From: a virus
Lineage: Duplodnaviria > Heunggongvirae > Uroviricota > Caudoviricetes
DNA: 64,000 bases
Reading direction: 5' to 3' (one strand)
IMG/VR virus record: IMGVR_UViG_3300034157_000066
Shown here: positions 12,096 through 57,454 of the stretch, piece after piece
Numbering within the stretch: the stretch's first letter is position 1
How the letters are laid out: the number at the start of each line of letters is the position of its first letter
Notes under the pieces: model-generated
Told to the model about the DNA's origin: nothing
Seen by the model: only the letters and a program-made list of their open reading frames with translations
Databases searched by the model: none
Made by a program: the position numbers and the translations under genes

Positions 12096-12204
12096 TGGAA
12101 TATTTTTCACTTTTAAAAAGTTTTTAAAAAATATCATTTTTGCTATTTACTTAATGTGTTTTTTGTTGTATAATAAAAGTCTAATAAACAAAGGTATTTA
12201 TATT

Positions 12205-12336: not shown

Positions 12337-12352
12337 CGAATTTTACAATTTT

Positions 12353-14004: not shown

Positions 14005-14183
14005 GAAAAAGATTGACAAATTTGAAAAAGTGTTGTCTAAAACAACAACCAAAATGATTGAGATCTTCAATTATCAACCATTTTGAATAAGGCATTTTAA
14101 CCAAATGTCTTATTTTTTTGTCTTAAGTTGCGTTGTTGAACCTTTTGGGCTAAAATATTTTTAAATTAACATGGGACTTTCTA

Positions 14184-14639: not shown

Positions 14640-14701
14640 TATATTGACTTTTTAAAGACTTTAAATAAACTATAGTAATAACATTTTGGAGTATTAGTAT
14701 T

Positions 14702-14986
14702 ATGTTTTTTTCTTTATTTTTAATATCTTATTTGATAGCAAGTTTAACATTAAGTATCGTTTATTATGACTATTATGCTGCATTTTATTTGGTTGCTGTT
14801 AATCTTATCATGATGATATTAATTATGAAAGATAGAATCTTTGTTAATTTATACAAAAAATTAGAGAAAAAAGATCCTTCTATTTCAATAGGTCTAGGCA
14901 TTTTTCAGTGTGTCTACATGATTTTAATTTTGCCTATTCTTTTCTTTAAAATCATGACAAGTATTGTTTCATATTTTGTTTCTTGA
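14702..14986 (+). CDS. small hydrophobic membrane protein (94 aa)
   Basis: RBS ttGGAGtattagtattATG; two predicted TM segments; very AT-rich. Confidence 0.5.
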   Translation: MFFSLFLISYLIASLTLSIVYYDYYAAFYLVAVNLIMMILIMKDRIFVNLYKKLEKKDPSISIGLGIFQCVYMILILPILFFKIMTSIVSYFVS

Positions 14987-15067
14987 TTAAAAAAAAATAC
15001 GATATTGCTTGCCCCAAAATCATATTCTTGATAGAATAGTCTCATCAAAACCTAGAAGGTGATTGTT

Positions 15068-15301
15068 ATGACTATCCGTTCCCGTGAAGAAATGGCTCGA
15101 AAAGTTCAAATTGACCTCGGAGGTCAATCAGGAAATTCTTTTGCCCTTATGGCTATTGCCGAAAATATCGGTAAGCAACTGGGTGTTCCGAAAGATGAGC
15201 GTGATTCTATTACCAAGGACATGATGTCAAGTGACTACGAACATCTGGTTGCCACACTGGAAAAGCATTACGGTGATTATATCGACATTTACGAGGTGTA
15301 A
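15068..15301 (+). CDS. hypothetical protein (77 aa)
   Basis: RBS agAAGGTGattgttATG; track ORF 15059 trimmed. Confidence 0.6.
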   Translation: MTIRSREEMARKVQIDLGGQSGNSFALMAIAENIGKQLGVPKDERDSITKDMMSSDYEHLVATLEKHYGDYIDIYEV

Positions 15302-15400
15302 TCTATTTTTTAGTGTGGTTTTCACTTAAAAATGATAGCCACACTCATAAAACTCTGTTATAATACATCTACACAATCAGCAAGAGCAAGGATATAAATC

Positions 15401-15724
15401 ATGTTCCCTCATTCAATCGTCACTGCCGATGTCATCAAGGTTGACTACGACTCAGCTAAGTTCGTGGTTGATGGGAAAAATGGAAAAGAAGAAGTGGCTA
15501 CACGCTTTTTCTGCACCATCCTTGTTCGGGGTGGTTTCATCTTCCGCCATACCAGTCAACTGCTGGATGAGGTAACCGCCTCCAATGTCACCGAAAAGAT
15601 TTACTCCCATGTCTTCAATGACAAGGGCACTGTAAATATGAAATTTTGGCAAGAATACCAATCGACATCCAGCACGCCACTGCTTGAAAAAATGCAGCTT
15701 GAAGCTCATCTCGAAACAGCGTAA
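15401..15724 (+). CDS. hypothetical protein (107 aa)
   Basis: Promoter tgTTATAAT ~15355-15363, RBS caAGGAtataaatcATG. Confidence 0.6.
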   Translation: MFPHSIVTADVIKVDYDSAKFVVDGKNGKEEVATRFFCTILVRGGFIFRHTSQLLDEVTASNVTEKIYSHVFNDKGTVNMKFWQEYQSTSSTPLLEKMQLEAHLETA

Positions 15725-15776
15725 ACTACTACTTCTTTGGGAGTGTTAAACTCCCACATCTCTTTTAAGGATTACC

Positions 15777-16175
15777 ATGACACAAGTTACTCAGCTAGAA
15801 CGCGAAGTTATCTCCAGTATTGCAAAACTGGGCTATCGTTCAGTCAAGACCTCCGAAATTCACACCATTTCTGACATCATTAAAAAAGCACAAGTGAATG
15901 CCGTTCTGTTGAACTTGAAACGGAAAGGCATGGTTACTATTATGGTTGATGGCATTGCTTCTCTTACCGTCCAAGGGCTTAACTCTTTCAACACCAACTA
16001 TGGTGAGCAAGCCATTTCTGATGTTCAAAGTGCTCATAATGCTAAAATGCTCTTTGGTCGCCCGATGAGCCGTAATGAATTGACATTTGTGAACAAGTGC
16101 ATCGACATTCGTAATCAGGGTGTCAAAGTAGGTAAAACCATCAAAGGGATTAAGGTATGGCTCAACCGCCGTTAA
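15777..16175 (+). CDS. hypothetical protein (132 aa)
   Basis: RBS ttAAGGAttaccATG; terminator gagaagcttaggcttctttttttt ~16196-16220. Confidence 0.6.
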   Translation: MTQVTQLEREVISSIAKLGYRSVKTSEIHTISDIIKKAQVNAVLLNLKRKGMVTIMVDGIASLTVQGLNSFNTNYGEQAISDVQSAHNAKMLFGRPMSRNELTFVNKCIDIRNQGVKVGKTIKGIKVWLNRR

Positions 16176-16310
16176 TTTGACGGTTACTGTAAAAAAAGAG
16201 AAGCTTAGGCTTCTTTTTTTTGTACATTTTGTTTATACATTTTGTTAAGTCATATAATTGACACATATGAAATTACTTGTATTATAGTATTAACAATAAT
16301 AATAAAAATC

Positions 16311-17255
16311 ATGTACATTAAAAAATTGCTCTTAGTTCCTGCACTTTCATTGTTAGGAATGAATTCTTTCGCAGAATATCAAATACAATATCCAGATGTT
16401 CCCGTTATCTTTAAAGATCTTGGTAAATGGGTTCCGGCTAATCCTATAATCTCTACTTGGGTTAATGTAGGCACTCCACATGATTGTCAAAGTGCTTCGC
16501 CACTTGAGAACACACAACAACTGGGTTTGTCATATGAAAAAACATTTTCAGGCTGCAAACAAGCACAAGAAAGAACTGTAACTACTTCTGAAAAACAGAC
16601 GTTTACAGGTGCTGTTCGTAATCAAGTGAGCACAAAAGAAACACAAGTGTTAACTAATGCTAGTTATAAAGTTAATTCTATTGGAACTACTGATTTTGGT
16701 CAATGGTTACAAACTGCTCCAGTTTATACAGGTTGGGTAAATCTTGAATCTCCACATGATTGTACAAGTGCTATACCACTTGAAAATACACAAACACTTA
16801 ATTCAACTTATGTAAAAACATTTTCTGGTTGCACACAGTCACAGGAACGCACTGTCACAACTTCTGAAAAGAATACTGTTACAGGTGTTGTTCGTAACGT
16901 AGTTAATACTAAGGAAAATCAAGTTCTCACTAATGTAACTTATACTGCAAATGCAATAGGAACAAAGGTTGTTAAAGAATGTGGTTACTCAGCAGTCAGT
17001 GGACATGCTTACAGATGGTATGATATTGCCACTTATGATGGTTATACAACTACTTATGGAATGGGGTTACAATGGGATGGTTCTACTAAAATTGATACCA
17101 CAAACATTAGTAAGACTTACCCTAAAGCAGCAACTTTTGTGAATGGTGGTTATACTTATACTCGCGGTGCATTTAAAGAAAAAGGTTCACATTATGACGG
17201 TCTACGTTCATACTATTATTACTATGAAGTGTGTAGAGAACCAATTGCACCATAA
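16311..17255 (+). CDS. secreted protein (314 aa) with two tandem copies of Cys-repeat and Cys-bounded aromatic C-terminal domain (...YYYEVCREPIAP)
   Basis: Signal peptide MYIKKLLLVPALSLLGMNSFA|EYQIQYPDVP; two ~95% similar repeats (PHDC.SA.PLENTQ.L...KTFSGC.Q.QERTVTTSEK.T.TG.VRN.V.TKE.QVLTN); start chosen at ATG 16311 (weak RBS); terminator 17262-17290. Confidence 0.7.
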   Translation: MYIKKLLLVPALSLLGMNSFAEYQIQYPDVPVIFKDLGKWVPANPIISTWVNVGTPHDCQSASPLENTQQLGLSYEKTFSGCKQAQERTVTTSEKQTFTGAVRNQVSTKETQVLTNASYKVNSIGTTDFGQWLQTAPVYTGWVNLESPHDCTSAIPLENTQTLNSTYVKTFSGCTQSQERTVTTSEKNTVTGVVRNVVNTKENQVLTNVTYTANAIGTKVVKECGYSAVSGHAYRWYDIATYDGYTTTYGMGLQWDGSTKIDTTNISKTYPKAATFVNGGYTYTRGAFKEKGSHYDGLRSYYYYYEVCREPIAP

Positions 17256-17381
17256 TTGAAAAACAAAAAGAAGCTTCGGCTTCTTTTTTCTTGCTTAAAA
17301 TAAGATTTTTAGGTATAATGACCTTATTGAAATCCACTATAAATATTGCCGAAAGGCATACTTTTAAAACGGAATATTAAC

Positions 17382-17882
17382 ATGACAGAAACTACAGCAG
17401 AATATCAGAAAATCCGCAGTGATGTGCTCAGCCACCTTCGCCGGAAAGGTTACTACACCCAACCCAGTGTTCGGGCGTATCCTGTCACCATTCAAGTCCT
17501 TAAAGATTTGATTGCAGAACGATTGGTTACTGAGAATGAGCAATACACTGGTAGTCAACGGTTGTTTAATTCCACTGATCTGATGCCTTCGACGGTGGTG
17601 GTTCGTAAGCAGTTTGGTCAAAATCTCAAAGCTGGTAATTATTTTGGTCATTCTGGTGAGTTTGTTTCTGCTTTGAATGAACGCTTTGATGAAGTTAATA
17701 ACAAAAGCTTTTTAAAAGTGGGTGTTGTTGCCGCTGTTGAAGTCAAATACATACCTAAGAACTTATGGGAAAAGCTGATTGGTCATAAGACTGAGCAGGC
17801 TGTTTTCATTACTTTGAATGATGGTAAAATCATCAAAACATTTTACAACAACATTTACCAAGTTGTTCGCACTCACCCCTAA
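17382..17882 (+). CDS. hypothetical protein (166 aa)
   Basis: Promoter ggTATAAT ~17313-17320; ATG 17382 (track start 17346 is TTG). Confidence 0.55.
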   Translation: MTETTAEYQKIRSDVLSHLRRKGYYTQPSVRAYPVTIQVLKDLIAERLVTENEQYTGSQRLFNSTDLMPSTVVVRKQFGQNLKAGNYFGHSGEFVSALNERFDEVNNKSFLKVGVVAAVEVKYIPKNLWEKLIGHKTEQAVFITLNDGKIIKTFYNNIYQVVRTHP

Positions 17883-17949
17883 ATAAAAGACTTGCCTGAA
17901 AACAAGATTTTTGCTAATATAGCGTTATCAAAATCAAGGAGTTACAAAC

Positions 17950-18354
17950 ATGCATCCAGTAGACGCCCAACTCATTAAAGACCACGGCAATGTTTCCGAT
18001 GACTATGAGACTTGGGTTTCCAGTAACGGTGTCGATGACTTCGTTAAAACCGAATTTACGTGCGGCAATTGCTTCATGCTTGCTTTGGCACTCCACTACA
18101 AAACTCAGTGGCCTATCAAGGCTAAAATGATTGATGGTGATGTTGTTCACTGCTACGTTGTGAACCCAGACGGTAAAGCGGTTGATATTTACGGTGTCCG
18201 TCCTACTGAACAGGCTCCGACTCGTTATGACGCGGACTTGACAGAAGGCTTCACGGTTATCGACGCTCGCCCAGAAACGCCTTGGCCTTCGAACAAAGAC
18301 TACCAGTGGGCAGAAGAACTGGTAAGCAAGTTCCCGGCTCACTTCGGTCTGTAA
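17950..18354 (+). CDS. hypothetical protein (134 aa)
   Basis: RBS caAGGAGttacaaacATG; terminator gacgcctttcgaggcgttttttt ~18371-18393. Confidence 0.65.
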   Translation: MHPVDAQLIKDHGNVSDDYETWVSSNGVDDFVKTEFTCGNCFMLALALHYKTQWPIKAKMIDGDVVHCYVVNPDGKAVDIYGVRPTEQAPTRYDADLTEGFTVIDARPETPWPSNKDYQWAEELVSKFPAHFGL

Positions 18355-18483
18355 TTCAATTTGTCAAAAGACGCCTTTCGAGGCGTTTTTTTCCTCTAAC
18401 TCATCAAAATATTTAAAATAAGTGTTGTTCATCAGATTGTTATTCGGTATAATTCACACATTAACTAGAACGGAATAAATACT

Positions 18484-18768
18484 ATGCAAACCACTATCAA
18501 GTTCAAAGAAAACGCTGACCAAACCAAACTGAAATCTATCAAGGTTTCCAGCGACCAATTCCATGAAATGTCGGATACTCAGCAAATCATGGTAGACATT
18601 CGCCAGTTGGTATTGAAAACCGTTGATCAGACTGTTCCTGACTATGCTGATAAGTTGGTCATCGAAGACCTTGAAACGGCTGCAAACAAAATTCGTCTGC
18701 ACTTCGTTGATATGCGTCAATACATGCTTAAAGACGAAGATTTGGCTGACAATAGCGATTACCTGTAA
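18484..18768 (+). CDS. hypothetical protein (94 aa)
   Basis: Promoter cggTATAAT ~18444-18452. Confidence 0.55.
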   Translation: MQTTIKFKENADQTKLKSIKVSSDQFHEMSDTQQIMVDIRQLVLKTVDQTVPDYADKLVIEDLETAANKIRLHFVDMRQYMLKDEDLADNSDYL

Positions 18769-18805
18769 TCGCTTTTAACCCTCTCATTTTCTGTATAGGT
18801 GTACT

Positions 18806-19330
18806 ATGAATCAGCCAGATATTCAACTTGTCACATCCAAAATCACCATGCTCTTGAAGGTTGTTGAAAATATCCAAGGCGTTAGTCTGAAAGGGTGTTT
18901 CTTGGACATTGCTAAATTGCGTGGCTTTTTGGCTGACTCTGATTATTCCAGTGCGTTGTCTTATGTTATCCATACACAAGAAACCATCGCAAGTTTCAAA
19001 CCTCATTTGGACATTGTTCAGATTTTTGAAAAAATTGAACGATATCTTTTGATTAACCTGCTTTATTTTGAACGTTATTATCAACAAGATATGGCTTATA
19101 TTGTTATTGATACTTACGAAGCAGTTTCTCGTTACTCTCGAGAGTTCCAACTGGCAATGGAATATGAAGATACAGAGATTAAACGCAAAGCATTGAACGA
19201 AGTGATTGAAGGTCTTCAGGCCGATCCCTTCAAAGGCAGTGACATGATTATCACGTTGATTAATCTTCTTCTGGATTCCAACGAACGAGTAGGTCCACTG
19301 CTGAGCCGTGTTAATAAGGATTTAGCTTAA
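18806..19330 (+). CDS. hypothetical protein (174 aa)
   Basis: RBS tatAGGTGtactATG. Confidence 0.6.
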   Translation: MNQPDIQLVTSKITMLLKVVENIQGVSLKGCFLDIAKLRGFLADSDYSSALSYVIHTQETIASFKPHLDIVQIFEKIERYLLINLLYFERYYQQDMAYIVIDTYEAVSRYSREFQLAMEYEDTEIKRKALNEVIEGLQADPFKGSDMIITLINLLLDSNERVGPLLSRVNKDLA

Positions 19331-19436
19331 TATCATTGTCGAATAGATTGATTTTTTTATTCTAAAAACTTGTTTATGATAGGTGACAGTGTTATAATTG
19401 TCTCTCTTAAACGAAATCAACCAAGGATACAAGACC

Positions 19437-19664
19437 ATGAAAGAATTGACCTCCTTCGAATTCTACAAAGCCCGTCAAGAACTGCCAGTCGGTGCTTATC
19501 GCGTTATTGAAGAAGATGAAACTGTCAGTATTGCAGTGGTTGAATCTCACGATATTAAATGGTTTGACGAAGACGAATATCTTGAAATTGAACGCCGCGA
19601 ATGTGAAGATCGCATGTGGGCTAATGATGGCATGGACTTGATTTACGGCTGCGAAGAAGACTAA
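19437..19664 (+). CDS. hypothetical acidic protein (75 aa)
   Basis: Promoter tgTTATAAT 19391-19399; RBS ccAAGGATACaagaccATG; track ORF 19398 trimmed. Confidence 0.65.
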   Translation: MKELTSFEFYKARQELPVGAYRVIEEDETVSIAVVESHDIKWFDEDEYLEIERRECEDRMWANDGMDLIYGCEED

Positions 19665-19760
19665 TTTAAGAAACAAATTGAAAAAGCTCAGAAATGGGCT
19701 TTTTTTTCGTCTCTAATACTGCTATACTTGCGTTATCAAAACTTATTAAGGAAAACATTC

Positions 19761-20393
19761 ATGTCGCTTACTCAAATCATTGAAGCTGTTCAGGCATCTC
19801 AGAAAACCCAACAAGAAATCCGTTCACAGTTGCTGCCAGTTTCTGATGCTCAAACGGTGTTCTTTGATGATCAAGACACTACCATCTCTTTGCTGGAAAT
19901 AGCCGAATCCCTGAGTTGTTCGGATGATTCTGGTTTGTCTGATAAAGCTGTTGACATGCGTGATGAAATTGTCGCTTTGTTGAAAGCTTATAATGATGAA
20001 GTGGAAGAATGTGTTAAAGAAAATAGCACTTACAATGCCGGTATTCATGGCAAAGAACGTCTTGAAGTGCTGAACATGGAAAAAATTGTAGCGACTGCTC
20101 AAGAAAAAGCATTGACCATGAAAGTGCAAATCAACACCCTCAAATTTACAGATGAACACATGAAGGCGTTCCGCGAAATTTATTTCGAACTCGGTGTTAC
20201 TCACTTCTTGAAAGAAGAACTCCGTGATGTGATCTACTTCGACCCAAAAGTAAGCCCTTATCTGCGAGATCTTATTGCAGAACGCTTCTTGGTGCGGTTT
20301 CCTGACTATGTAAATCCAAAAGGTTATATGAATGTGACTTCCGTTGACTTCATTAACCACCTTGAACGTATTCAGAAGGCTGCTGTTAATTAA
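19761..20393 (+). CDS. hypothetical protein (210 aa); member of 4-gene family with (I/V)(Y/V)Y(F/Y)(D/N)P motif
   Basis: RBS ttAAGGAaaacattcATG; ...LG(V/F)THF....RD(V/I)IYFDP; related to 21320, 44997, 45778 products; terminator 20414-20440. Confidence 0.65.
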   Translation: MSLTQIIEAVQASQKTQQEIRSQLLPVSDAQTVFFDDQDTTISLLEIAESLSCSDDSGLSDKAVDMRDEIVALLKAYNDEVEECVKENSTYNAGIHGKERLEVLNMEKIVATAQEKALTMKVQINTLKFTDEHMKAFREIYFELGVTHFLKEELRDVIYFDPKVSPYLRDLIAERFLVRFPDYVNPKGYMNVTSVDFINHLERIQKAAVN

Positions 20394-20413
20394 AAGAATA
20401 CATGTATCAATTA

Positions 20414-20440
20414 AAGGGCTTCGGCCCTTTTTTTTATTTC
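20414..20440 (+). terminator. rho-independent terminator (CUUCGG hairpin)
   Basis: aagggcttcggcccttttttttat. Confidence 0.75.
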
Positions 20441-20479
20441 TAATTTATGGTATATTACACGTCTTAATGGGAGATTTTT

Positions 20480-20716
20480 ATGTCAAATAATGGTTGGACA
20501 GAGGTTGTTCCACAAGAAGTTGGTTCATATTACTTCTATGGTGATATTTCGTTTAAAAAAGATGATCCAAATTTTAAAGCAGAACTTTCAATTTTACACA
20601 TCCATAAAATTTCGAATGGCATCATGCATGTGATTGCGGGTCAGTTCTTTTTTCCTGATGACAACGGTGGTTATGGTTTGTTTAAAAAAGTTGATTTGGA
20701 TCTTCCAAAGTTGTAA
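20480..20716 (+). CDS. hypothetical protein (78 aa)
   Basis: Promoter tggTATATT ~20447, RBS tGGGAGatttttATG. Confidence 0.6.
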   Translation: MSNNGWTEVVPQEVGSYYFYGDISFKKDDPNFKAELSILHIHKISNGIMHVIAGQFFFPDDNGGYGLFKKVDLDLPKL

Positions 20717-22687: not shown

Positions 22688-23152
22688 ATGAACTTACAAC
22701 TTAGACACCGTTGTCTTCAGTTTGAAACGGAAGGGACTATTGTTTACGACCCCGACCGTGGAACCATGAAGAAAAACATTGAACATTGGGCTGTTATCAC
22801 GATAGAACCGGATATCGCGGCCTACTATCGCCATCAGTTTTATCAACGGTATGGTATCGAGTTGGATAAACCTAACTGGGATGTTCATTGCTCAGTGCTG
22901 AAAGGGTATACCAATACAGATACATCTAAGCCGTGGGGCTGGCTTGACCAACAACCTGTTGAACTGCATTACACCCATGAATTGTTCTGGAATGATTCGC
23001 ATGTGTGGATAAACTGTTATTCAGCCGAGTTTTTCAAAATTCGTGAATACTATAACGTGTTGGGCACAGACCAAGGCCATATCACTATTGGGAAGTTTAA
23101 GCATTATCAAAAAGACAGGCTAAAACCCTTCAAAAACTACGTTCCAGATTGA
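22688..23152 (+). CDS. putative 2H phosphoesterase family protein (154 aa), Acb1-like candidate
   Basis: Two H-x-S/T-x motifs (HCSVL at aa 67, HITIG at aa 131) spaced ~64 aa apart as in LigT/2H phosphoesterases; size matches ~150-aa phage 2H enzymes; promoter ctgTATAAT ~22641; terminator hairpin before it. Confidence 0.4.
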   Translation: MNLQLRHRCLQFETEGTIVYDPDRGTMKKNIEHWAVITIEPDIAAYYRHQFYQRYGIELDKPNWDVHCSVLKGYTNTDTSKPWGWLDQQPVELHYTHELFWNDSHVWINCYSAEFFKIREYYNVLGTDQGHITIGKFKHYQKDRLKPFKNYVPD

Positions 23153-31580: not shown

Positions 31581-32435
31581 ATGCTTAAAAAGATTTTTGC
31601 TTCTCTTGTTCTTCTGGCATCAGTTGCCCTCAGTGGGTGTTCTGAAACCGTAGACGCTGGTTTTGTTGGTGTTGTTGAAAAACATCCCTACGTTGGTCCG
31701 GGTGGTGTAGAGAAAGAATTTTACAAAGGTGGTGATCGCTACTATATCTCGCCAACCTCCATCATGCACCGCTATGACATTAAACCTATTCAGAAAGAAG
31801 AAGCGTTTAATGACTTGGCAACCATTAACTCGACTCCGGTAGACTTTAAAGCGGTGGTTCGTTATGAAATCATTCCTGAAAAAGCTTACATCTACCATGA
31901 AAGCTTTGGTAATGCGATGTATGATAATAACTTGAAAAAAGACTTTCAAAACATGCTTCGTGACTTTGCTCGAAAACACACTGTGAAGCAACTCACTACA
32001 GAACAGACAGTGACTGACGCAGGTGAAGACGATGTTTACAAGAAAATGGTTGACATTGTTGTAGCAAAAGGCATTCCGGTTCGAATTTTGGCTGTAACTA
32101 TCGGTGCAATTATGCCACCCGATGAAGTTCTTGCAGAAACTGCTCGGACAGAAGCTCAAATTCAACGTGCATTAACTGAAATTGAACGAGCATCTGCTGA
32201 AACTCAGCGAAAAGAAGCTGAAACCAACAAAGCTGCTGCTGACAATGAATACATGAGCAAAATGAAAATGACACCTGAGCAATACTTGCGAGGTCGTGAA
32301 ATTGATAACCAGCGTGAAATTGTTGAAACGGTCAAAAAGAAAGATAACGTCAACATGTTGATTGTCTTGGGTGGTGGTGGTTCCCTTCCACAAGGGGTAA
32401 CAGTTCCACAGCCAATCGTTCAACCAAAGCAGTAA
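31581..32435 (+). CDS. SPFH/band-7 (prohibitin/HflK-like) domain lipoprotein (284 aa)
   Basis: Lipobox LSGC; TVDAGFVGVVEK start typical of SPFH domain entry; C-terminal Ala/Glu/Gln-rich coiled-coil; terminator aaaggccaactagtggccttttttg ~32447-32475. Confidence 0.5.
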   Translation: MLKKIFASLVLLASVALSGCSETVDAGFVGVVEKHPYVGPGGVEKEFYKGGDRYYISPTSIMHRYDIKPIQKEEAFNDLATINSTPVDFKAVVRYEIIPEKAYIYHESFGNAMYDNNLKKDFQNMLRDFARKHTVKQLTTEQTVTDAGEDDVYKKMVDIVVAKGIPVRILAVTIGAIMPPDEVLAETARTEAQIQRALTEIERASAETQRKEAETNKAAADNEYMSKMKMTPEQYLRGREIDNQREIVETVKKKDNVNMLIVLGGGGSLPQGVTVPQPIVQPKQ

Positions 32436-34019: not shown

Positions 34020-34134
34020 CAAGCAATCATCTTCAAGAAATTTGTAGATATTTTTCAATAATCTGTTTTTTGACTTGCCTTCACTGCTGTATTTCGATAT
34101 AATAGCCCAACTCAAACCAGTAGAGATTTGAACC

Positions 34135-35256
34135 ATGTCCAGCATCTTCCCGCGTATTGAAACCCTTGATGATATGCTTCCTCACATCAAAGACCGTGCC
34201 TATATTTCTGTTAATAAACAGGATAACGGTGCCAACATCGTTTGCTATAACATCAGCAACGGCGACTCTTTCAACACTCCGGTTGAAAAGGAAGCTCGCG
34301 GTATTACCTTTGACGACAACGGTAAAATCCTGTCGCGTCCATTGCACAAATTCTTCAACTTGGCAGAGCGTGCAGAAGTCCAACCAGCCGTTTTGGATTG
34401 GAACACGATGGTCGCCGGGTTTGATAAAATGGATGGCTCCATGATTACCACAGGGCTGTTCAACGGCGAATTTTTTGCTAAGTCCAAGAAGTCTTTCAAA
34501 TCGGATGTGGCTGTTTCTGCAGAAAGTTTTGTGTCTCGTAACCAGAAATACTACGAGTTCACCAAATATTGCTCTCAGGCCCAACTGACCCCTATTTTTG
34601 AATTCACTTCGCCAAAACATCGTATCGTTTTGCGTTATGACGAAGACAACATGACACTTCTTCATGTTCGTCACAACATCACAGGCGATTACTTAATGCC
34701 TGCTGACAAAGACCAACTGGCGTTGTTGTTTGATATTCCTGTTAACAAGCCACTGTTTGGTGAAGAATTTGATTTGGCTGCTTTATTGAAGTCGCTGAAC
34801 ACTGTTGAAGGGATTGAAGGCTACGTTATTCAGTTCGTTAACGGTAACATGATCAAAATCAAAACCAAATGGTATATGAACCTCCATCATGCGGTTAGCT
34901 TTGTTCGTGAACGTGATATTGCTCGGTTGGTGGTTGAAGAAAAACTTGATGATTATATCGCTTATTTGTCGCTGAACTCGCCAACGGCTGATTTGAGTGA
35001 GATTTATCGAATCAATGACGCTATCAAAGCTTCGATTGAAGCGTTGTCGAAAGAAGTTGATGATATTGCTGCTGAATTCCAAGGTGTTGATGTGAAAACT
35101 GCAGCAATTCAGCTTAAAGGCCATAAACACTTTGGTTTTGTTATGGGTGCAATTCGTGGTCACAAAAACGACTACCTGTATCACTACTCTAAAAACCATC
35201 TGGTGGATTGGTCGTTGGAACAAATTGAGCTTGGCGACTTGTCAGCTCCGGTTTAA
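34135..35256 (+). CDS. rnlA: RNA ligase 1 family (T4 RnlA-like) paralog A, 373 aa
   Basis: KxDG adenylation motif (FDKMDGSM), RGITFD.NG...RP..KFFNL, EGYV.QF..G...KIKT.WY.NLHH blocks; same length (373-374 aa) as T4 Rnl1; promoter cgaTATAAT ~34096-34104; terminator aagccctgcacttgcggggcttttt ~35270. Confidence 0.8.
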   Translation: MSSIFPRIETLDDMLPHIKDRAYISVNKQDNGANIVCYNISNGDSFNTPVEKEARGITFDDNGKILSRPLHKFFNLAERAEVQPAVLDWNTMVAGFDKMDGSMITTGLFNGEFFAKSKKSFKSDVAVSAESFVSRNQKYYEFTKYCSQAQLTPIFEFTSPKHRIVLRYDEDNMTLLHVRHNITGDYLMPADKDQLALLFDIPVNKPLFGEEFDLAALLKSLNTVEGIEGYVIQFVNGNMIKIKTKWYMNLHHAVSFVRERDIARLVVEEKLDDYIAYLSLNSPTADLSEIYRINDAIKASIEALSKEVDDIAAEFQGVDVKTAAIQLKGHKHFGFVMGAIRGHKNDYLYHYSKNHLVDWSLEQIELGDLSAPV

Positions 35257-35373
35257 ATCAGTATGAAGAAAGAAGCCCTGCACTTGCGGGGCTTTTTAAT
35301 AATAATCTATTTTTTGGTTGTTAATATTTAGTGTTTGATGTATAATCAATCCATCAAAACAGAGGTTTATCTC

Positions 35374-35757
35374 ATGACAACCATCCGCGATAAAGCAGCT
35401 AACGTAGACATCACCAGCAAAGGCTTTCTTGATTTTACTGCCCCATTCCGAAAAGGTCAGCATTCTGTTATTTGCTGGTCTTTGGTCGAAGATGGTTCTT
35501 GTGGCATAGAGGAAACCATTGCTTGTCCACCTAATTTTCAACTGGTGGCTATGATGTTTCCAGACGTTTCGGCGGTTGTTATGATGGAGTTGGCTCAAAA
35601 ACTGCGTAGCTTTTTCAACTCTTGGTGGATAACCGAAGAACCTGAAGCTTATGCAGAGCCGCCACGAAACTATTCGCGTTTTTCTGCAACCATTGAATAC
35701 ACTCGCCTTTACGCTTTCTATCTTGAACAGAAAGAGGCGATGGACGTAAAAGCGTAA
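35374..35757 (+). CDS. hypothetical protein (127 aa) between the two RNA ligases
   Basis: Promoter gatgTATAAT ~35338-35347, RBS acAGAGGtttatctcATG. Confidence 0.6.
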   Translation: MTTIRDKAANVDITSKGFLDFTAPFRKGQHSVICWSLVEDGSCGIEETIACPPNFQLVAMMFPDVSAVVMMELAQKLRSFFNSWWITEEPEAYAEPPRNYSRFSATIEYTRLYAFYLEQKEAMDVKA

Positions 35758-35848
35758 ATATCACAACAAAAGGCAGTCTTTGACTGTCTTTTTCATTGTT
35801 TGAAAACAATATTTCATGTATAATCCACTGATTAACACAGAGGTTTCT

Positions 35849-36166
35849 ATGACTAAATTTCGAATTGCTTATGACCCAGAAAATGGTGTTTCAACCCCAG
35901 ATGGAGTGTGTGTTGCTATTGTTGACGAGCTGATTTCTCTTCGTCAGTTTGGAGATGTGACTTACACCACTGCTACGGCCACTGTTATCACTGCATTCCG
36001 GTTGGCTGCGGCTGAAAAGAAAATCAGCGTTGACGATATTGTCTTTGTTTTTGATGGGTCTGATGTCACAATGGACAACAAATTTGAACTGTCGGCTTGG
36101 CCTAAACAGGGCGACATTCAAGGCAACATGCTTGGAAAAATCATGCAAGCACGAAAAAAAGTTTGA
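35849..36166 (+). CDS. hypothetical protein (105 aa); paralog of 54270..54584
   Basis: Promoter atgTATAAT ~35817-35825, RBS acAGAGGtttctATG; shared YDP..GV.T.DG...and FRLA...K.(L/I)S..DIV blocks. Confidence 0.65.
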   Translation: MTKFRIAYDPENGVSTPDGVCVAIVDELISLRQFGDVTYTTATATVITAFRLAAAEKKISVDDIVFVFDGSDVTMDNKFELSAWPKQGDIQGNMLGKIMQARKKV

Positions 36167-36222
36167 ATTAAAAATCAGTTTTTGATATAATCAATTCAGA
36201 CAATTTAATCGTGGAGATTCAC

Positions 36223-37344
36223 ATGACTTATCAACAAGAACTGTATGCCCAACTGATGAACCTGTTGGTGACGAATCCGGGGTCGTTCAAATACCGTGAT
36301 GAAACCTCGGCAGTAGACGGCGGGACTTACCGTGTCTTCAACTATGACATTCCAAAGCACTCCGAATTCAAACTTCCGGGTGCTAAGGATTGCCGTGGGG
36401 TCATGTTCTACATGGGCGGTGATGATCCAGTGCTGGTTGCATTGCCTATGCAGAAATTTTTCTCGCTCGGTGAAACCCCAGAGACTCAAAAGATCAAGCC
36501 AGAAGAAGCGGATCATGCTTACTTGAAGCCGGACGGTTCCTTGCTGACCAGCTATATCTCGCCGGTTAACAATACGCTTTACTACAAGAGCAAAAAGAAG
36601 CCAACTTTTGCCGATTATGACCTTGTTGAAAAGTCTATCAGCCCTGAATTGCACGCTGACATTGAACGGTTGACCCGCACAGGTGTTTCTGTTGACTTGG
36701 AATTGACCACGCCCAAAAACCGCGTGTTCATTGAATACACTGATTACGCTGTTCATATCCTAAAAGCCCGTGATATGAGCACTGGTGCTTATGTTGATAT
36801 TCGTTCGGCTGAATTCGCTGCCAAATACCCGGTTATTGCGGCCCATTTGGTGAAACGTATCCCTATCAATGAACTCAACGTCAATGACCCTGAGATTGAG
36901 GGTTATGTGGTTGAATTTGGCACTGACATGTATAAGGTGAAGACAATTCCTTACCTGAAAATGTCGGCAGTTGTCAACATTCAGGATCGGTCGAAGGAAC
37001 GTCAGGTTATTTATGAAGCAACACTTCACGAAATTCTGGATGAAATCCGTTCGTTGTATCACTACCGGACGCACAGCGACAACTTCCCACTGGCTGAAAT
37101 TCTGGCTCGCTTGGATGAAGTAGAAGACTATGCACGTAAAAGCTACCATTACCTTGTTCGCACGGTCGATAGCTTCCACAATGAGCATAAAGGTCTGGAA
37201 CGTGGCGATTACGCTCGTAAAGCCAAAGAAGTGGCTCCATTGCTTCTGTCGGTGTTGATGAGCAAGTTTTCGGGTGATGAGATTGATTACAAACAAGCTG
37301 CTATCATGGTATTTGCTCGTAAACAAGTGCCTATTCCCGAGTAA
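36223..37344 (+). CDS. rnlA: RNA ligase 1 family (T4 RnlA-like) paralog B, 373 aa
   Basis: GGTYRVFNYD...CRGVMF, MQKFFSLGETPE, YLKPDGSLLTSY (KxDG), EGYVVEFGTDMYKVKT, EHKGLERGDYARKAK closely parallel T4 Rnl1 blocks; promoter ttgaTATAAT ~36183-36192; terminator aacggccctagtcttctagggcttttttat ~37353. Confidence 0.85.
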   Translation: MTYQQELYAQLMNLLVTNPGSFKYRDETSAVDGGTYRVFNYDIPKHSEFKLPGAKDCRGVMFYMGGDDPVLVALPMQKFFSLGETPETQKIKPEEADHAYLKPDGSLLTSYISPVNNTLYYKSKKKPTFADYDLVEKSISPELHADIERLTRTGVSVDLELTTPKNRVFIEYTDYAVHILKARDMSTGAYVDIRSAEFAAKYPVIAAHLVKRIPINELNVNDPEIEGYVVEFGTDMYKVKTIPYLKMSAVVNIQDRSKERQVIYEATLHEILDEIRSLYHYRTHSDNFPLAEILARLDEVEDYARKSYHYLVRTVDSFHNEHKGLERGDYARKAKEVAPLLLSVLMSKFSGDEIDYKQAAIMVFARKQVPIPE

Positions 37345-37473
37345 GTGACTGTTTAATAAAACGGCCCTAGTCTTCTAGGGCTTTTTTATTTCTATTAAAA
37401 AATAGCTTTACGAAAATTATGTTTTTTGCTATAATTCAACTGTTGAAACATACATACTACTCAGGAGCTGAAA

Positions 37474-37774: not shown

Positions 37775-38086
37775 ATGAAAAAATTACTGTGCTTTTTGGC
37801 TGTACCCTTTTTGCTAACAGGTTGTTTGGATGAATTAAAAACGTCCGAAGCTTCACAGGTAAGCACTGCGAATACAATCAAGTATCAAAAGGAAATTGAT
37901 ATTGCTCGGGATAACGGCCCGCAAGATATTGTTTGTAGCTCAGGTGGTGTTGTTACCTATAAGCACGAAAATGTTATCTTGTATCGTAGCATTTATTCAG
38001 ATACTAGAAACATTGATGTCTATGAACAAGACACTACTGAGAAAGTTGTTGTTTCTGGGGACTGCACCATTCGCCCACATAAGTAA
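37775..38086 (+). CDS. small lipoprotein (103 aa), paralog 1 (Llp/superinfection-exclusion-like candidate)
   Basis: MKKLLCFLAVPFLLTGC lipobox; RBS ttGGAGttgtcATG; mature part with 2 Cys (DIVCSSGGVVTY...DCTIRPHK). Confidence 0.7.
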   Translation: MKKLLCFLAVPFLLTGCLDELKTSEASQVSTANTIKYQKEIDIARDNGPQDIVCSSGGVVTYKHENVILYRSIYSDTRNIDVYEQDTTEKVVVSGDCTIRPHK

Positions 38087-38127: not shown

Positions 38128-38421
38128 ATGAAAAAAATATTAGTTGGATTAGCTCTTTCATTGGCACTGTCAGGTTGTGATCGTGTACAACCCGCTGCTG
38201 TAGATCCTCAAAACAGGGTTATCAGTTATGAACGCGAATATGGCCCGAAAGATATCATTTGCCATTCTGGTTCAGTGGTGACTTATGATCACAAAAATGT
38301 CATTATTTATCAAAATATTCAGCATAATTCTACCATTCTCGATGTTTATGAGAATGATACTCATGAAAAGATTGGTTTGCCAGTGGCTCAATGTATTTGG
38401 CGACCTCACAAGCAAAGTTAA
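38128..38421 (+). CDS. small lipoprotein (97 aa), paralog 2
   Basis: MKKILVGLALSLALSGC lipobox; RBS attGGAGActttATG; aligns with 37775 product (DIICHSGSVVTY...QCIWRPHK); terminator aaagccgctttcgagcggtttttt. Confidence 0.7.
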   Translation: MKKILVGLALSLALSGCDRVQPAAVDPQNRVISYEREYGPKDIICHSGSVVTYDHKNVIIYQNIQHNSTILDVYENDTHEKIGLPVAQCIWRPHKQS

Positions 38422-44996: not shown

Positions 44997-45653
44997 ATGG
45001 TGAACTTGATGAATCTGACTTATGAAGAACTTCAAACTTTGACCACTGCCTACAAATCAGCGAAAGAAGAATTGGGTAAAAAATTGGTGAGCTTGCCTGC
45101 AAGCACAAAAGTCTATAACCCAGCTACTCAGACAGAATCGAGCCTCTTTGACATTCTTCGTGCTATGAATGACGATGTTATGCCAGAAGAAGTAAAACCC
45201 GCTCATGAAGCCGCTCTACAAGCTTTGTTGACCTTTCAAAACCTCATGAATGAAAAGATTTATGAAGCCAAGGCCAACAACTACACGGTAAGCATGGCTA
45301 TTCGAAACTTGCATTCGGAATACCTTAAAGCTACTGCTATTCCAGAACGTTTGCTTTCAGCCGTCTTGTTGGTTAACAAGAAAAATATTGCAGAAGCCGA
45401 CCACTCTATTCTGGTGGATATTTATAAATCCTTGGGACTGACGCATTACTCCACCCATACTGCCCGTGACATCGTATATTACAATCCAGCCCAGCTTGAT
45501 TTGGACGGTTTGAAAAATATGGTTGTCATGAATTCACCTTCACTGTTTCAACACAATTACCCCAACTTTTGGGATAACATGACGGGTGAATACGTTGATG
45601 CGGACCCTTTGACGGCTTGTATGTTGATGGTTTTTAATGCACGAAAAGCTTAA
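44997..45653 (+). CDS. hypothetical protein (~215 aa); 4-gene family member
   Basis: ...LLVNKKNIAEADHSILVDIYKSLGLTHYSTHTARDIVYYNP... parallels 45778 product; start (44997 vs 45013) uncertain. Confidence 0.55.
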   Translation: MVNLMNLTYEELQTLTTAYKSAKEELGKKLVSLPASTKVYNPATQTESSLFDILRAMNDDVMPEEVKPAHEAALQALLTFQNLMNEKIYEAKANNYTVSMAIRNLHSEYLKATAIPERLLSAVLLVNKKNIAEADHSILVDIYKSLGLTHYSTHTARDIVYYNPAQLDLDGLKNMVVMNSPSLFQHNYPNFWDNMTGEYVDADPLTACMLMVFNARKA

Positions 45654-45777: not shown

Positions 45778-46425
45778 ATGACATTGACTGTTGAAGACGT
45801 AAAAAAACTGACGGCTGATTTTCAAGCAGCAAAGCAAGAACTGCAAGCAAAAATTCAACGTGCCCCTGACTCTCCTGATATTTGGGATGAAGATCATGAA
45901 GAAAGTTCCTCATTGGCTGATCTGGTTCGTGGTTTGAATACAAGTTCCATGCCGCCTGCTGCATTGGCAATGCAAGAACAGCTTATTGCTGACCTTGAAG
46001 TTTTCGGTAACGCTATCAATAGCAAAATTTCCGAAGTTTCAATTCATAACACCCGTATTCAGCTTGAAATTGAAAAGCTGACCAAAGACTTCTTGGCCGC
46101 TATTCGCGTTCCTGAGAGCGATTTGGGAGCCGCATTGCTCATCAACAAGAAAATCATCGACCCTCTTGATTATGAGGCTCTGGTGTCGGTGTATCGTGAG
46201 CTGGGCTTTACCAACTTTGAAATCAAAGCTCAAAAAGACATTGTGTATTACAACCCAGACATTAAGCATTTCAACACCTTGAAGGACGAAATCTTCGAGG
46301 CTTTCCCGAAAGACTTTCGTAAAAAATATCCAACATTCTTGAACTTTATTCAAAACAGTATTGTCCGCACCAATCCTGTTTATGGGCATGGACTCATTCA
46401 AGTAATGGAAGCACGCCAAGTATAA
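45778..46425 (+). CDS. hypothetical protein (215 aa); 4-gene family member, tandem to 44997
   Basis: Promoter aatgttgtttttgtag...tgcTATAAT, RBS tAGGGTGAcaaaaATG; ...LLINKKIIDPLDYEALVSVYRELGFTNFEIKAQKDIVYYNP... Confidence 0.65.
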   Translation: MTLTVEDVKKLTADFQAAKQELQAKIQRAPDSPDIWDEDHEESSSLADLVRGLNTSSMPPAALAMQEQLIADLEVFGNAINSKISEVSIHNTRIQLEIEKLTKDFLAAIRVPESDLGAALLINKKIIDPLDYEALVSVYRELGFTNFEIKAQKDIVYYNPDIKHFNTLKDEIFEAFPKDFRKKYPTFLNFIQNSIVRTNPVYGHGLIQVMEARQV

Positions 46426-46561: not shown

Positions 46562-46819
46562 TTAGCTTTTTACTTCGAAAAATGGTTCACGTTCGACCAG
46601 ATCAGTCATTTGGCGTTTCAGTGTTTTGCCATAATGCTTCCATGCTTCTAGTCCGCGATTAGCTATACGGTAAGCGTTATACGTGTTAACACCATACCAT
46701 TCACCGTTTTCATACCGATACCAGCTTTCACAATATTGAAAGTCTGCACTTTCAGGAGCGTAGTGTGTGGTACCAGAAGGAGCTTCATGCCAAGGAATTT
46801 CTTTTATGGGTGCGTTCAT
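46562..46819 (-). CDS. hypothetical Trp/Tyr-rich protein (85 aa) on minus strand
   Basis: Own minus-strand promoter (tatTATAAT ~46845) and terminator (ccgggtgactccggttttttt, 46520-46555 minus sense). Confidence 0.55.
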   Translation of the reverse strand: MNAPIKEIPWHEAPSGTTHYAPESADFQYCESWYRYENGEWYGVNTYNAYRIANRGLEAWKHYGKTLKRQMTDLVEREPFFEVKS

Positions 46820-49594: not shown

Positions 49595-50197
49595 ATGACC
49601 ATTCCAGTATTCAATATCAAAGAAATCATTTCTCATGTTAAGCGTTCCTTTATGCAAGTGGAACAGGTGAAAGGCTCCTATGAGAGTATTTTTGGCGGCA
49701 CCAAAGAAATCGATCATTATGTGCTCACTAAACCGTCAGCCATCTGCCTGACCCTGTATGACAAGGCGACTGATGAATTCGTTTTCGTGAAGCAATTCCG
49801 CATGGGTGCCTTCAAACATCCTGACGAAACTGATGCTTGGGTTATCGAGCCTGTGGCCGGTCATATCGACCCGAAAGAAGACCCCCTGCTGGCCGCTCAG
49901 CGTGAAGGTGAAGAAGAAACCAATATGCTGATCAAGTTGGAAGACATTCGTTACCTGTGCAAAGGCTACACCAGTGCTGGTATTTCCAACGAAATGCACC
50001 ACACCTACTTTGCCTATGTGGACTCTTCGAGCTTCGACCTGAACCGTTCGCATGGTATTGATGATGAAGACATTCAAATCATCAAAATCAGTCGTGAAGA
50101 TACCATGAAGATGATTGAAAGTGGCGAAATTCGCACTTGCAGTGCTATCATCGGTGTTTCACTGGCAATTGCAAAAGGTTTGGTGCCAGCACAATAA
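49595..50197 (+). CDS. Nudix hydrolase (ADP-ribose/nucleoside diphosphate pyrophosphatase-like), 200 aa
   Basis: Nudix box GHIDPKEDPLLAAQREGEEETNM (Gx5Ex7REUxEExGU pattern); FVKQFRMGAF resembles NudF/NudE substrate-binding stretch; RBS ccAAGGAGttccacctttATG. Confidence 0.75.
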   Translation: MTIPVFNIKEIISHVKRSFMQVEQVKGSYESIFGGTKEIDHYVLTKPSAICLTLYDKATDEFVFVKQFRMGAFKHPDETDAWVIEPVAGHIDPKEDPLLAAQREGEEETNMLIKLEDIRYLCKGYTSAGISNEMHHTYFAYVDSSSFDLNRSHGIDDEDIQIIKISREDTMKMIESGEIRTCSAIIGVSLAIAKGLVPAQ

Positions 50198-54269: not shown

Positions 54270-54584
54270 ATGTTGAAAATTCCACCCGGAACACGAATCC
54301 TTCTGGTCTATGATCCAGTTCATGGTGTTCCGACATCTGATGGTCTAGCTGCTGAATTTGTGGCGGATATTGTTGAAAGTAATGATGATCAGTTGATTTA
54401 CACATCCAGTTCGCTGGTTATTGATTATTTCCGATTGGCTGTCTTCAAGAAAGAGTTGTCGCCAAACGATATTGTCATTCGTTTTAATGATAAGGAAATT
54501 CTTCTTACGAAGGAAGGCCGATTTTCTGAGTGTCCAGTTGGTTTTTGCGACTATATGGAAAACATTCTTATGCAGTTGATTTAA
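54270..54584 (+). CDS. hypothetical protein (104 aa); paralog of 35849..36166
   Basis: RBS ttGAGGAaatttATG; track ORF 54258 trimmed; YDPVHGVPTSDG / FRLAVFKKELSPNDIV blocks. Confidence 0.6.
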   Translation: MLKIPPGTRILLVYDPVHGVPTSDGLAAEFVADIVESNDDQLIYTSSSLVIDYFRLAVFKKELSPNDIVIRFNDKEILLTKEGRFSECPVGFCDYMENILMQLI

Positions 54585-56047: not shown

Positions 56048-56914
56048 TTAGTTAACTTGGCAAACTTGATATCCGCCTGATTGATATGGCCCACGTCTGT
56101 ATAGTTTACCATCAGTTCCTCTTACATCTGGATAGTTAGTTAAGTAGTCTGGATTGACATAATTTCTATATACAACATTACCTTGCCATAAAACAGTTAA
56201 TTCTGTAATGTAACCTTCATCTTCTTGATAACCCCATTCATAAGAACTCCATGCGAAGTTACATACTGTCGCTGGTTTTGTTCCAATACTTGTTCTGGTT
56301 GATGTGGTTGTAATGGATTGATTTTCAATAGTCGATGATCCTACATTTCTTATCACATTTGTGGTTGTTTCTTGTTCACGATTTTGTTTGCTACGAGTTT
56401 GAGGTTGCTTACAATCCGTTGCAGTTTGTGTGAATGATTGACCAGATGTGACCGTTGATGTGGCTGGACTCCAGTTCGTGCAGCTTGTTACAGCCCCACT
56501 ATTAACCCATGTTGTGACATCAGCAGCAATCGCCACCCATGTTTCTAATGTGCCTACAGCACTCCGTGTTTGAGTTGTGTTAATACTTTGGGATTCATTG
56601 TAAGGATTTCCAATGTTACGAATACTGCCTGAAACATTATCAACTTCTCGATCTTGCACTGTTCTGGTTTGATCTTGCTTACAGTCGTTTGCTGTTTGTG
56701 TAAACGTATTTCCGATGGTTATTGCAGATACTGCAGGACTCCAATTTAAACATGAATGCACACTTCCTGTGTTTTCCCAATCGCCATACAATGGAGAATT
56801 TGCAGTCCAACTGGCAAATCTTACTGGTTCATCTAAGTTAAATTTAACAATATATTCAGCTTGTATTATGCCACCAGCTAATGCCAGCGTTAATGATAGT
56901 AATGTTTTTTTCAT
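56048..56914 (-). CDS. secreted protein (288 aa) with two Cys-repeats and Cys-bounded aromatic C-terminal domain (...GGYQVCQVN)
   Basis: Signal peptide MKKTLLSLTLALAGGIIQA|EYIVKFNLDEP; repeats C.NWSP..S....G..FTQTA.DCKQ.QTR..Q.RE.....IRN.G twice; lone minus-strand gene in AT-rich intergenic context. Confidence 0.75.
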   Translation of the reverse strand: MKKTLLSLTLALAGGIIQAEYIVKFNLDEPVRFASWTANSPLYGDWENTGSVHSCLNWSPAVSAITIGNTFTQTANDCKQDQTRTVQDREVDNVSGSIRNIGNPYNESQSINTTQTRSAVGTLETWVAIAADVTTWVNSGAVTSCTNWSPATSTVTSGQSFTQTATDCKQPQTRSKQNREQETTTNVIRNVGSSTIENQSITTTSTRTSIGTKPATVCNFAWSSYEWGYQEDEGYITELTVLWQGNVVYRNYVNPDYLTNYPDVRGTDGKLYRRGPYQSGGYQVCQVN

Positions 56915-57368: not shown

Positions 57369-57454
57369 AGCCCGAGTGGTGAAATGGTAGACACGGGAGA
57401 CTTAAAATCTCCTTCTCGTGAGGGAGTGCCGGTTCGAGTCCGGCCTCGGGCACC
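57369..57454 (+). tRNA. tRNA-Leu (anticodon UAA), type II with long variable arm, CCA encoded
   Basis: Acceptor GCCCGAG/CTCGGGC, D-loop, anticodon stem GGAGA/TCTCC with loop CTTAAAA, long variable arm, T-arm GCCGG-TTCGAGT-CCGGC, discriminator A + CCA. Confidence 0.85.

Follow-up and report, generated by a model that had tools for sequence, protein, structure and literature searches.

Within a 64,000-nucleotide stretch of DNA from the IMG/VR virus record IMGVR_UViG_3300034157_000066 (Caudoviricetes; hereinafter the window, at its full length), we analyzed a locus that codes for two RNA ligases of the Rnl1 family, typified by RNA ligase 1 of phage T4 (Rnl1, RnlA). We term these ligase A and ligase B, and the two small genes lying between them s1 and s2 (Table 1). 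About 1 kb separates the ligase genes, which belong to the accessory part of a very large phage-like genome and have no structural genes in their vicinity. A first-pass annotation of the bare sequence had reported two 373-amino-acid (aa) open reading frames (ORFs) with a KxDG motif and two small genes between them; the ORF list and an alignment with the T4 enzyme confirm both ligase frames and their motif I, and the ORF list likewise contains the small genes. For ligase B there is an alternative GTG start at 36211, upstream of the ATG at 36223, which would give a protein of 377 aa.

Table 1. Features of the ligase locus and of the surrounding window; coordinates are those of the window unless a contig is named.
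Feature	Coordinates	Strand	Remarks
Sigma-70-like promoter for A	34075..34103	+	TTGCCT, 17-nt spacer, TATAAT; scan and direct reading
Rnl1-family RNA ligase A	34135..35256	+	373 aa; KMDGS type; RsoM2USA/BcepSauron/bacterial clade
Intrinsic-terminator-like hairpin after A	35275..35297	+	GCCCTGC, loop ACTT, GCGGGGC, then TTTTT; read by eye, unlisted by the automatic scan
Sigma-70-like promoter for s1	35318..35346	+	TTGTTA, 17-nt spacer, TATAAT; scan and direct reading
Small gene s1	35374..35757	+	127 aa; confined to this phage clade; distant paralog at 61321-61674
Intrinsic-terminator-like hairpin after s1	35768..35792	+	Scan
TATAAT (-10-like) hexamer upstream of s2	35819..35824	+	No good -35; read by eye, failed the scan
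Small gene s2	35849..36166	+	105 aa; phrog_12026 family; fast-evolving; paralog at 54270-54584
Sigma-70-like promoter for B	36163..36191	+	TTGAAT, 17-nt spacer, TG-extended TATAAT; scan and reading
Rnl1-family RNA ligase B	36223..37344	+	373 aa from ATG; KPDGSL type; rare clade, sister to T4-like Rnl1s
Intrinsic-terminator-like hairpin after B	37363..37382	+	Scan and reading
"2H" candidate protein	22688-23152	+	154 aa; HCS at residue 67, HIT at residue 131
P-loop protein, candidate 5'-kinase	L201:8608-9054		148 aa; about 0.5-1 kb left of window base 1
Recognizable window genes (HNH, RNase_T, Band_7, NUDIX-box ORF)	14184-14639, 10521-11108, 49595-50197, 31581-32435	+	Coordinates given jointly
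Paralogs	3054-4277 / 4388-5611; 44997-45653 / 45778-46425; 37775-38086 / 38128-38421; 1795-2334 / 2553-2918
Further paralogs	7362-8396, 8515-9222, 16311-17255, 56048-56914
tRNA-Leu(UAA) and tRNA-Met(CAU)	57370-57455 and 57722-57798	+	ARAGORN and Rfam agree
tRNA-like gene	12355-12425	+	Rfam tRNA, 44 bits; abnormal anticodon arm

Profile searches with both ligases converged on the same family. Each exceeded the gathering score (28.3 bits) of the Pfam model RNA_lig_T4_1 (PF09511; A, 97.4 bits, 1.5e-27; B, 34.7 bits, 2.2e-8), and each matched phrog_562 (A, 6e-73; B, 1.5e-46), whose PHROG label, like the corresponding RefSeq annotation, is "RNA ligase and tail fiber protein attachment catalyst". 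The T4 Rnl1 structures in the PDB (2c5u, 5tt6, 9do4) were recovered over residues 33-277 of A (2e-27) and residues 3-351 of B (3e-34), and the NCBIfam model TIGR02308, the T4 RnlA equivalog model, was matched at 152.4 bits by A (1.7e-44) and at 146.6 bits by B (1e-42). In the Pfam scan the model of the T4 Rnl1 C-terminal domain (PF20819, T4_Rnl1_C) gave a sub-threshold match to B (E 0.0019) and none to A. The block-by-block likeness to T4 RnlA described in the first-pass annotation holds up: every motif that it listed is present in B (GGTYRVFNY, CRGVMF, MQKFFSLGETP, KPDGSL, IEGYV, and the C-terminal HNEHKGLERGDYARKA), and A has variants of them (ARGITF, HKFFNLAE, KMDGSM, IEGYV), in agreement with the PF09511, phrog_562, and PDB matches. 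By these comparisons we identify A and B as full-length homologs of T4 RNA ligase 1 within the Rnl1 family.

The active sites of both proteins are intact. When A and B were aligned with the authentic T4 rnlA product from NC_000866, residues R54, K75, F77, K99, D101, G102, K119, E159, E227, G228, K240, and K242 (T4 numbering) were invariant in all three, as was F76. Among these, K99, D101, G102, E159, E227, G228, K240, and K242 constitute motifs I (KxDG), III (Glu), IV (EGYV), and V (KxK), and R54, K75, and F76/F77, which are Rnl1-specific residues of the N-subdomain that contact ATP, are kept in both ligases; in T4 Rnl1, R54 and K75 are essential (PMC6379707). The profile searches and this alignment agree for both proteins that they belong to a nucleotidyltransferase-fold family and possess its catalytic lysine. 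Since it is the domain appended to the nucleotidyltransferase core that defines an RNA ligase family (PMC6379707), and since the C domain of T4 Rnl1 confers its anticodon-loop specificity (PMC6379707 citing PMC1924901), we compared this appended domain by profile-profile alignment. With hhalign, the A clade aligned to the T4-like Rnl1s with a probability of 100 (E 5.5e-46; A 26-347 against T4 24-350), and so did the B clade (E 1.5e-58; B 5-363 against T4 1-357). Both alignments run through the C domain, which indicates that A and B each carry a homologous C-terminal domain of the all-helical Rnl1 type.

The two ligases are nonetheless far apart within the family. Their identity to each other is 26% by BLASTP (5e-16) and 22% in a family alignment of 28 sequences, where the N domains are 23% and the C domains 19% identical. 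In that alignment A is 28% identical to T4 Rnl1 and 42% to the homolog in Ralstonia phage RsoM2USA, and B is 27% identical to T4 Rnl1 and 31% to that of Salmonella phage S16. In a neighbor-joining (NJ) tree of sampled phage Rnl1s with 100 bootstraps, the B clade groups with T4, S16, and EJP2, and the A clade with RsoM2USA, BcepSauron, Moby, Cr30, and phiM12; bootstrap support is 100% for each of the two immediate clades. A and B thus appear on opposite sides of the deepest split in the phage Rnl1 tree. The earlier observation that the copies are diverged, with B the closer one to T4, is borne out by E-value, alignment extent, and position in the tree.

The distribution of the two types is markedly different in abundance. 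Among IMG/VR contigs we recovered 123 A-type relatives, many on contigs larger than 200 kb, and A-type Rnl1 homologs with 28-42% identity also occur in about 93 GTDB bacterial genomes, mostly Alphaproteobacteria. These bacterial carriers (our loci L037-L116) include Bradyrhizobium, Mesorhizobium, Ruegeria, Methylobacterium, and Asticcacaulis, where the gene is chromosomal and lies among housekeeping genes. B-type genes are rare, with 46 protein clusters in a large protein collection; a profile search of IMG/VR found one locus (a 341-kb contig, 48% identity), a single-protein query of IMG/VR with B returned no close relatives, and in the GTDB genomes we found no B-type gene. The B clade is a rare and uncharacterized one confined to very large contigs. 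Its more distant members (63-72% identity; L016-L019 and L023/L024, on contigs of up to 1.04 Mb) lie beside genes for a NUDIX protein, a tyrosyl-tRNA synthetase (TyrRS), and a Glu/GlnRS fragment, as well as a nucleoside deoxyribosyltransferase and a HAD gene of the Swiss-army-knife type (PF18143); the NUDIX, synthetase, and HAD neighbors support a tRNA- or RNA-repair setting for this clade.

The closest relative with A alone, L005 on a 290-kb IMG/VR contig, has an A gene of 74% identity and retains the downstream neighbors, and an ORF coding for a GNAT-like protein of 122 aa stands in place of s1-s2-B. On the more distant A-bearing contigs L006-L011, no B was found within 10 kb. We could consequently reject a recent tandem duplication as the origin of the pair, given the 22-26% identity, the NJ tree, and the comparison with L005; nor does the description "a duplicated ligase" in the first-pass annotation stand, as A and B belong to deeply separated Rnl1 clades and, with the nearest A-only relative as reference, s1-s2-B is inserted or replaces other sequence. 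The deep separation of the clades taken together with the layout of L005 therefore identifies the pair as a lineage-specific juxtaposition of two old clades. A tblastn search of INPHARED (50,697 phage records) with A matched 1687 records and with B 1565, with exactly one match per record and no pair, and among the 123 A-type IMG/VR loci the 80 best all lie on distinct contigs, with the sole B-type contig not among them. Two Rnl1-family ligases per genome are, within the sensitivity of detection at about 25% identity, not seen outside this clade.

Inside the clade, at least six related lineages have retained the A-s1-s2-B block (identity of B, 88-100%), and it is present in every member seen. 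The identities for A, s1, s2, and B, respectively, are 100%, 97%, 87%, and 99.7-100% (L003/L004); 97%, 85%, 90%, and 96% (L026, L029); 85%, 79%, 56%, and 92% (L197); 80%, 70%, 39%, and 89% (L198); and 79%, 75-77%, 35-36%, and 88% (L020-L022). L027 and L028 have the same gene layout. In comparisons with relatives, the pairwise ratio of nonsynonymous to synonymous substitution rates (dN/dS) lies at 0.07-0.14 for A, and for B at about 0.06, so both ligase genes are maintained by strong purifying selection.

The two genes are also transcriptionally separate. A, s1, and B each have a promoter and a terminator of their own (Table 1), with promoter-to-gene distances of 31-32 nt for A and B and 28 nt for s1, and this pattern extends across the window: a perfect TATAAT lies at most 80 nt upstream of 40 of the 90 plus-strand genes, against about 11 expected, and 59 of the 94 TATAAT hexamers fall within the intergenic 19% of the window sequence. 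Hairpin terminators follow many window genes, giving a largely monocistronic layout. We hence discarded a four-gene operon or module; with their own promoters and terminators and the same layout window-wide, the four genes are separate early-type cassettes. The same regions account for the "MYNxxIxTEV" N-terminus apparently shared by longer frames of s1 and s2, which we rejected as protein because it arises from translation of the stretch that holds the promoter and the ribosome-binding site (TGTATAAT...ACAGAGGTTT).

The replicon from which the window derives is evidently very large. Of ten window proteins, nine (positions from 3054 to 63457) have identical counterparts on a 1,917,244-bp JGI contig. 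Megablast of the locus against INPHARED gave no match, and neither did an exact 29-mer scan of the JGI metagenome collection; a protein-based scan then yielded contigs of 1.86 Mb and 678 kb. Related blocks are present on contigs of 1,859,102 bp (at 0.79-0.81 Mb, where the metagenome scan gave a single B locus) and 1,851,360 bp (at 1.79-1.81 Mb), and on others of 1,843,594, 1,071,457, 834,842, 773,483, and 677,834 bp. The contigs of 1.84-1.86 Mb come from other assemblies than the one of 1,917,244 bp. A replicon of about 1.9 Mb is far above the phage genome sizes in the literature that we searched; with a gene content that looks phage-like in the window, it could be a giant phage, a plasmid-like element, a cell, or a misassembly.

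The analysis shows that the two genes belong to the family, have intact active sites, are under purifying selection, and have promoters and terminators of their own, and that they are deeply diverged and juxtaposed in a lineage-specific manner. From this we propose, with a probability of roughly 60%, that they code for two catalytically competent and independently transcribed Rnl1 ligases from old, separate clades, which probably act on different RNAs or lesions in tRNA counter-defense. In each, the motif-I lysine would be adenylylated, the AMP would be moved to a 5'-PO4 RNA end, and attack by a 3'-OH would reseal the RNA; the most likely substrate would be a tRNA nicked in its anticodon loop by a host nuclease. 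As the C domain sets tRNA specificity in T4 Rnl1, and the C domains of A and B are about 19% identical, the two probably have different substrates, and would act on different RNAs or lesions without being redundant; two substrate specificities, which the first-pass annotation had also entertained, are plausible. On the evolutionary side, the ancestor of the clade would already have had A, beside which B, s1, and s2 were then added, the small genes being unrelated cargo. The tRNA genes in the window (Table 1) provide context for a tRNA- or RNA-repair role.

Several observations weigh against this proposal. First, both ligases score below the equivalog cutoff of TIGR02308 (242.25 bits), above which the same function as T4 RnlA would be implied; by the criterion of NCBI they are homologs and not equivalogs, to which the function of T4 RnlA is not simply transferable. 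Second, the deep nodes of the NJ tree have bootstrap values of 62-68%. Third, a Pfam scan of 149 ORFs neighboring the bacterial A-type genes in 20 genomes revealed no conserved RNA-repair neighbors, only housekeeping genes. Fourth, the window contains no Pnkp, HAD phosphatase, RtcB, Rnl2, or RlaP by tblastn, Walker-A scan, and Pfam families, and the sole kinase candidate, a weak one by its profile matches, lies about 35 kb from the ligases and outside the window. Fifth, the source replicon of about 1.9 Mb may be something other than a phage, so that the framing as phage counter-defense is an assumption. Finally, we infer the ligase activity, the tRNA substrate, the differing specificities, and the counter-defense role from the sequences.

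The matter of end-healing enzymes bears directly on these points. In T4-type tRNA repair, which counters PrrC, a bifunctional 5'-kinase/3'-phosphatase (Pnkp) is encoded with the ligase, and none was found in the 64-kb window. The statement that no Pnk is recognizable nearby was upheld for the window by tblastn with T4 PseT (Pnkp), which gave no match below E 3, by the Walker-A scan, and by the Pfam scan; the sole match to the Walker-A pattern in any window ORF is a non-canonical AWKHYGKT in an 85-aa ORF (46562-46819). Contig L201, of which 9589-20489 corresponds to window 1-10900 at 99.4% identity, extends 9.6 kb further left and there codes for a 148-aa P-loop protein that matches PF13671 AAA_33 (2.8e-9), phrog_505 "polynucleotide kinase" (3.7e-7), and phrog_2071 "ATPase" (1.7e-22), with the kinase domain of mammalian PNKP as its best PDB match (E 0.002). 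We did not find by eye in this protein counterparts of the two lid-region arginines of the T4 Pnk kinase. A gene with a CinA domain adjoins it. The first-pass annotation had also put forward the protein encoded at 22688 as a 2H phosphoesterase that could supply a healing activity. Beyond the HxS and HxT motifs, we found no support for this: phrog_12204, of unknown function, is the sole family match, and neither Pfam nor NCBIfam nor the PDB (at E up to 10) gave any, so that a 2H assignment, suggested by the motifs, is a guess. The protein is conserved across the clade and belongs to a 34-member cluster; in size and in the spacing of its motifs it would also be compatible with a cyclic-nucleotide phosphodiesterase like Acb1. 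Linked healing enzymes need not be indispensable: the ends generated by Toprim tRNases, P2-OLD among them, are 5'-PO4/3'-OH, and T4 Rnl1 seals a single nick of this kind with no prior healing (PMC12445682); therefore, a ligase with no linked Pnkp can still be useful.

Among the alternatives, the most probable one, though we consider it unlikely, is that B is a horizontally acquired second copy that does the same job as A on the same RNA substrate, either as a simple back-up or through variants thereof such as dosage, different timing in infection, or escape from a host factor by which one type of ligase is inhibited or sensed. The identity of the catalytic residues in A and B and the similar early-type sigma-70 promoters of both are consistent with this, as is the frequency of divergent paralog pairs throughout this genome region. 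However, strong purifying selection acts on both copies across lineages that have diverged to dS >1, and both are retained in every clade member seen, when pure redundancy is rarely stable at such divergence; the 19% identity of the specificity-determining C domains likewise argues against it.

Quite unlikely in our estimate is a broader scenario, in which the two Rnl1 clades were joined in a replicon of about 1.9 Mb to repair chemically different lesions: on the one hand 3'-OH/5'-PO4 nicks made by metal-dependent tRNases of the Toprim/OLD/PARIS type, which would be sealed without healing, and, on the other, breaks handled by heal-and-seal with unlinked stand-alone kinase and phosphoesterase genes. 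If true, the two ligases would be part of a translation-maintenance toolkit of unusual self-sufficiency in this phage-like replicon. The corresponding division of labor between the ligases themselves, which we hold to be very unlikely, is that one seals clean 3'-OH/5'-PO4 nicks (Toprim-type, OLD) and the other functions in a heal-and-seal pathway with a kinase and a cyclic phosphodiesterase; by extension, the latter could be a Trl1-like, 2'-PO4-dependent route using the 2H-like protein at 22688. Such a division would accommodate the sealing of Toprim tRNase nicks by T4 Rnl1 with no healing step (PMC12445682), the stand-alone polynucleotide-kinase-like P-loop gene just left of the window, the HxS (residue 67) and HxT (residue 131) of the 22688 protein, and the precedent of fungal Trl1, in which an Rnl1-like ligase domain is joined to a kinase and a 2H cyclic phosphodiesterase (PMC6379707); however, the 22688 protein finds no support as a 2H enzyme in Pfam, NCBIfam, or the PDB, the kinase candidate is weak and unlinked, and the homology of the two C domains is to that of T4 Rnl1, not to that of Trl1. 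Highly improbable is a split of the jobs of T4 gp63, where one paralog would be the RNA ligase and the other would mainly promote tail-fiber attachment, for although T4 Rnl1 (gene 63) is known for both RNA ligation and tail-fiber attachment (the latter non-covalent and separable from ligation) and the PHROG/RefSeq family label names both, A and B each retain all catalytic residues of the ligase, are under purifying selection, and have early-type promoters in an accessory region that has no structural genes nearby, and A-type homologs occur in bacterial chromosomes without tail fibers.

The small genes have no discernible part in RNA repair. s1 has no match in Pfam, PHROG, or NCBIfam; its homologs in a word index come from this clade alone, all with identities of 70% or more, and an exhaustive HMMER search of 1.8 billion representatives retrieved no family; what it added were weak matches between residues 5-63 and repeats of two giant proteins. 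An AlphaFold (AF2) model of s1 is all-alpha and of low confidence (predicted local distance difference test score, pLDDT, 67), with no fold match in BFVD, the sole library searched for s1. We found nothing that connects s1 or s2 with RNA repair. We also considered s1 or s2 as the missing healing enzymes and found no support for it, s1 being without a family or fold match and both having paralogs elsewhere in the window (Table 1).

The remainder of the window has a composition that fits a phage accessory region, as judged from the 53 PHROG families, against 14 Pfam families, detected among its 113 ORFs. The Pfam families comprise RNA_lig_T4_1 (twice), DUF7717, three Pentapeptide models, RNase_T, Band_7, HNH, HNH_5, NUDIX, three GNAT models, and a marginal CfAFP. 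The recognizable genes include those for an HNH endonuclease (phrog_5200, 1.5e-48), a DEDDh exonuclease of the RNase_T type (9.4e-18), and an SPFH/Band_7 protein; a 200-aa ORF with a NUDIX-box motif is probably the single Pfam NUDIX match of the window. Divergent paralog families are frequent, with adjacent pairs at 31-51% identity and one four-member family whose N-termini, by eye, resemble signal peptides, and paralog expansion appears to be a general feature of this genome region. In addition to two regular tRNA genes, the window has a tRNA-like gene (12355-12425) for which ARAGORN gives a two-base "anticodon" and whose anticodon arm folds with a stem of 4 bp and a loop of 6 nt (CGAAAA). 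This gene may be a degenerate tRNA, a decoy, or a variant resistant to nucleases.

Compared with T4 Rnl1 (gp63, RnlA; 2c5u, 5tt6), A and B have almost the same length (373 versus 374 aa), the same motifs I, III, IV, and V, the same R54, K75, and F77, and a homologous C domain; they differ in their identity of 27-31% to it, in their scores below the TIGR02308 cutoff, and, for A, in the lack of the N-terminal helix of the T4 enzyme. The T4 gene is present once, about 1.4 kb from pseT (Pnkp) within a series of same-strand genes, whereas here there are two copies, each with a promoter and a terminator, and no Pnkp in 64 kb. The closest relatives of A in cultured phages, the RsoM2USA gp480 (annotated as a hypothetical protein) and the BcepSauron gp373 Rnl1, are full-length at 42% and 29-32% identity, respectively, but are single copies, with no B-type partner detected in either record (tblastn, INPHARED). 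The fungal and plant Trl1, with an Rnl6 ligase domain, a kinase, and a 2H cyclic phosphodiesterase, works by heal-and-seal (PMC6379707); it shares with the present system an Rnl1-like adenylyltransferase domain, and its healing steps rely on a polynucleotide kinase and a 2H enzyme, but it has its own type of C domain and requires a 2'-PO4, whereas A and B have C domains of the T4 Rnl1 type and the candidate healing genes are unlinked.

The nearest precedents are jumbo phages with several RNA ligases, which have been read as non-redundant and specialized for different RNase effectors (Iyer et al. 2021, PMC7824862). BcepSauron and BcepSaruman combine RtcB, Rnl1, and Rnl2, and XacN1 has three Rnl2 paralogs (PMC7824862). 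Like the present case, these have more than one ATP-dependent RNA ligase in a large genome, with tRNA genes, NUDIX, and 2H-like proteins in the same genomes (PMC7824862); unlike them, here both ligases are of the Rnl1 family and come from its two deepest clades. The pair is a set of new, divergent family members in a combination that extends a published theme, and since both the multi-ligase jumbo phages and the specialization hypothesis are already in the literature (PMC7824862), what the case adds conceptually is modest. Host anticodon nucleases are classically countered by phage RNA ligases, and the known tRNA-cutting defenses are growing in number (PrrC, RloC, PARIS, OLD, and others). Two deeply divergent Rnl1s of equal length, both under selection, offer a natural experiment on how the C domain chooses its substrate, in which direct comparison or domain swaps are possible, and the B clade may be a source of ligases with new specificities for RNA work.

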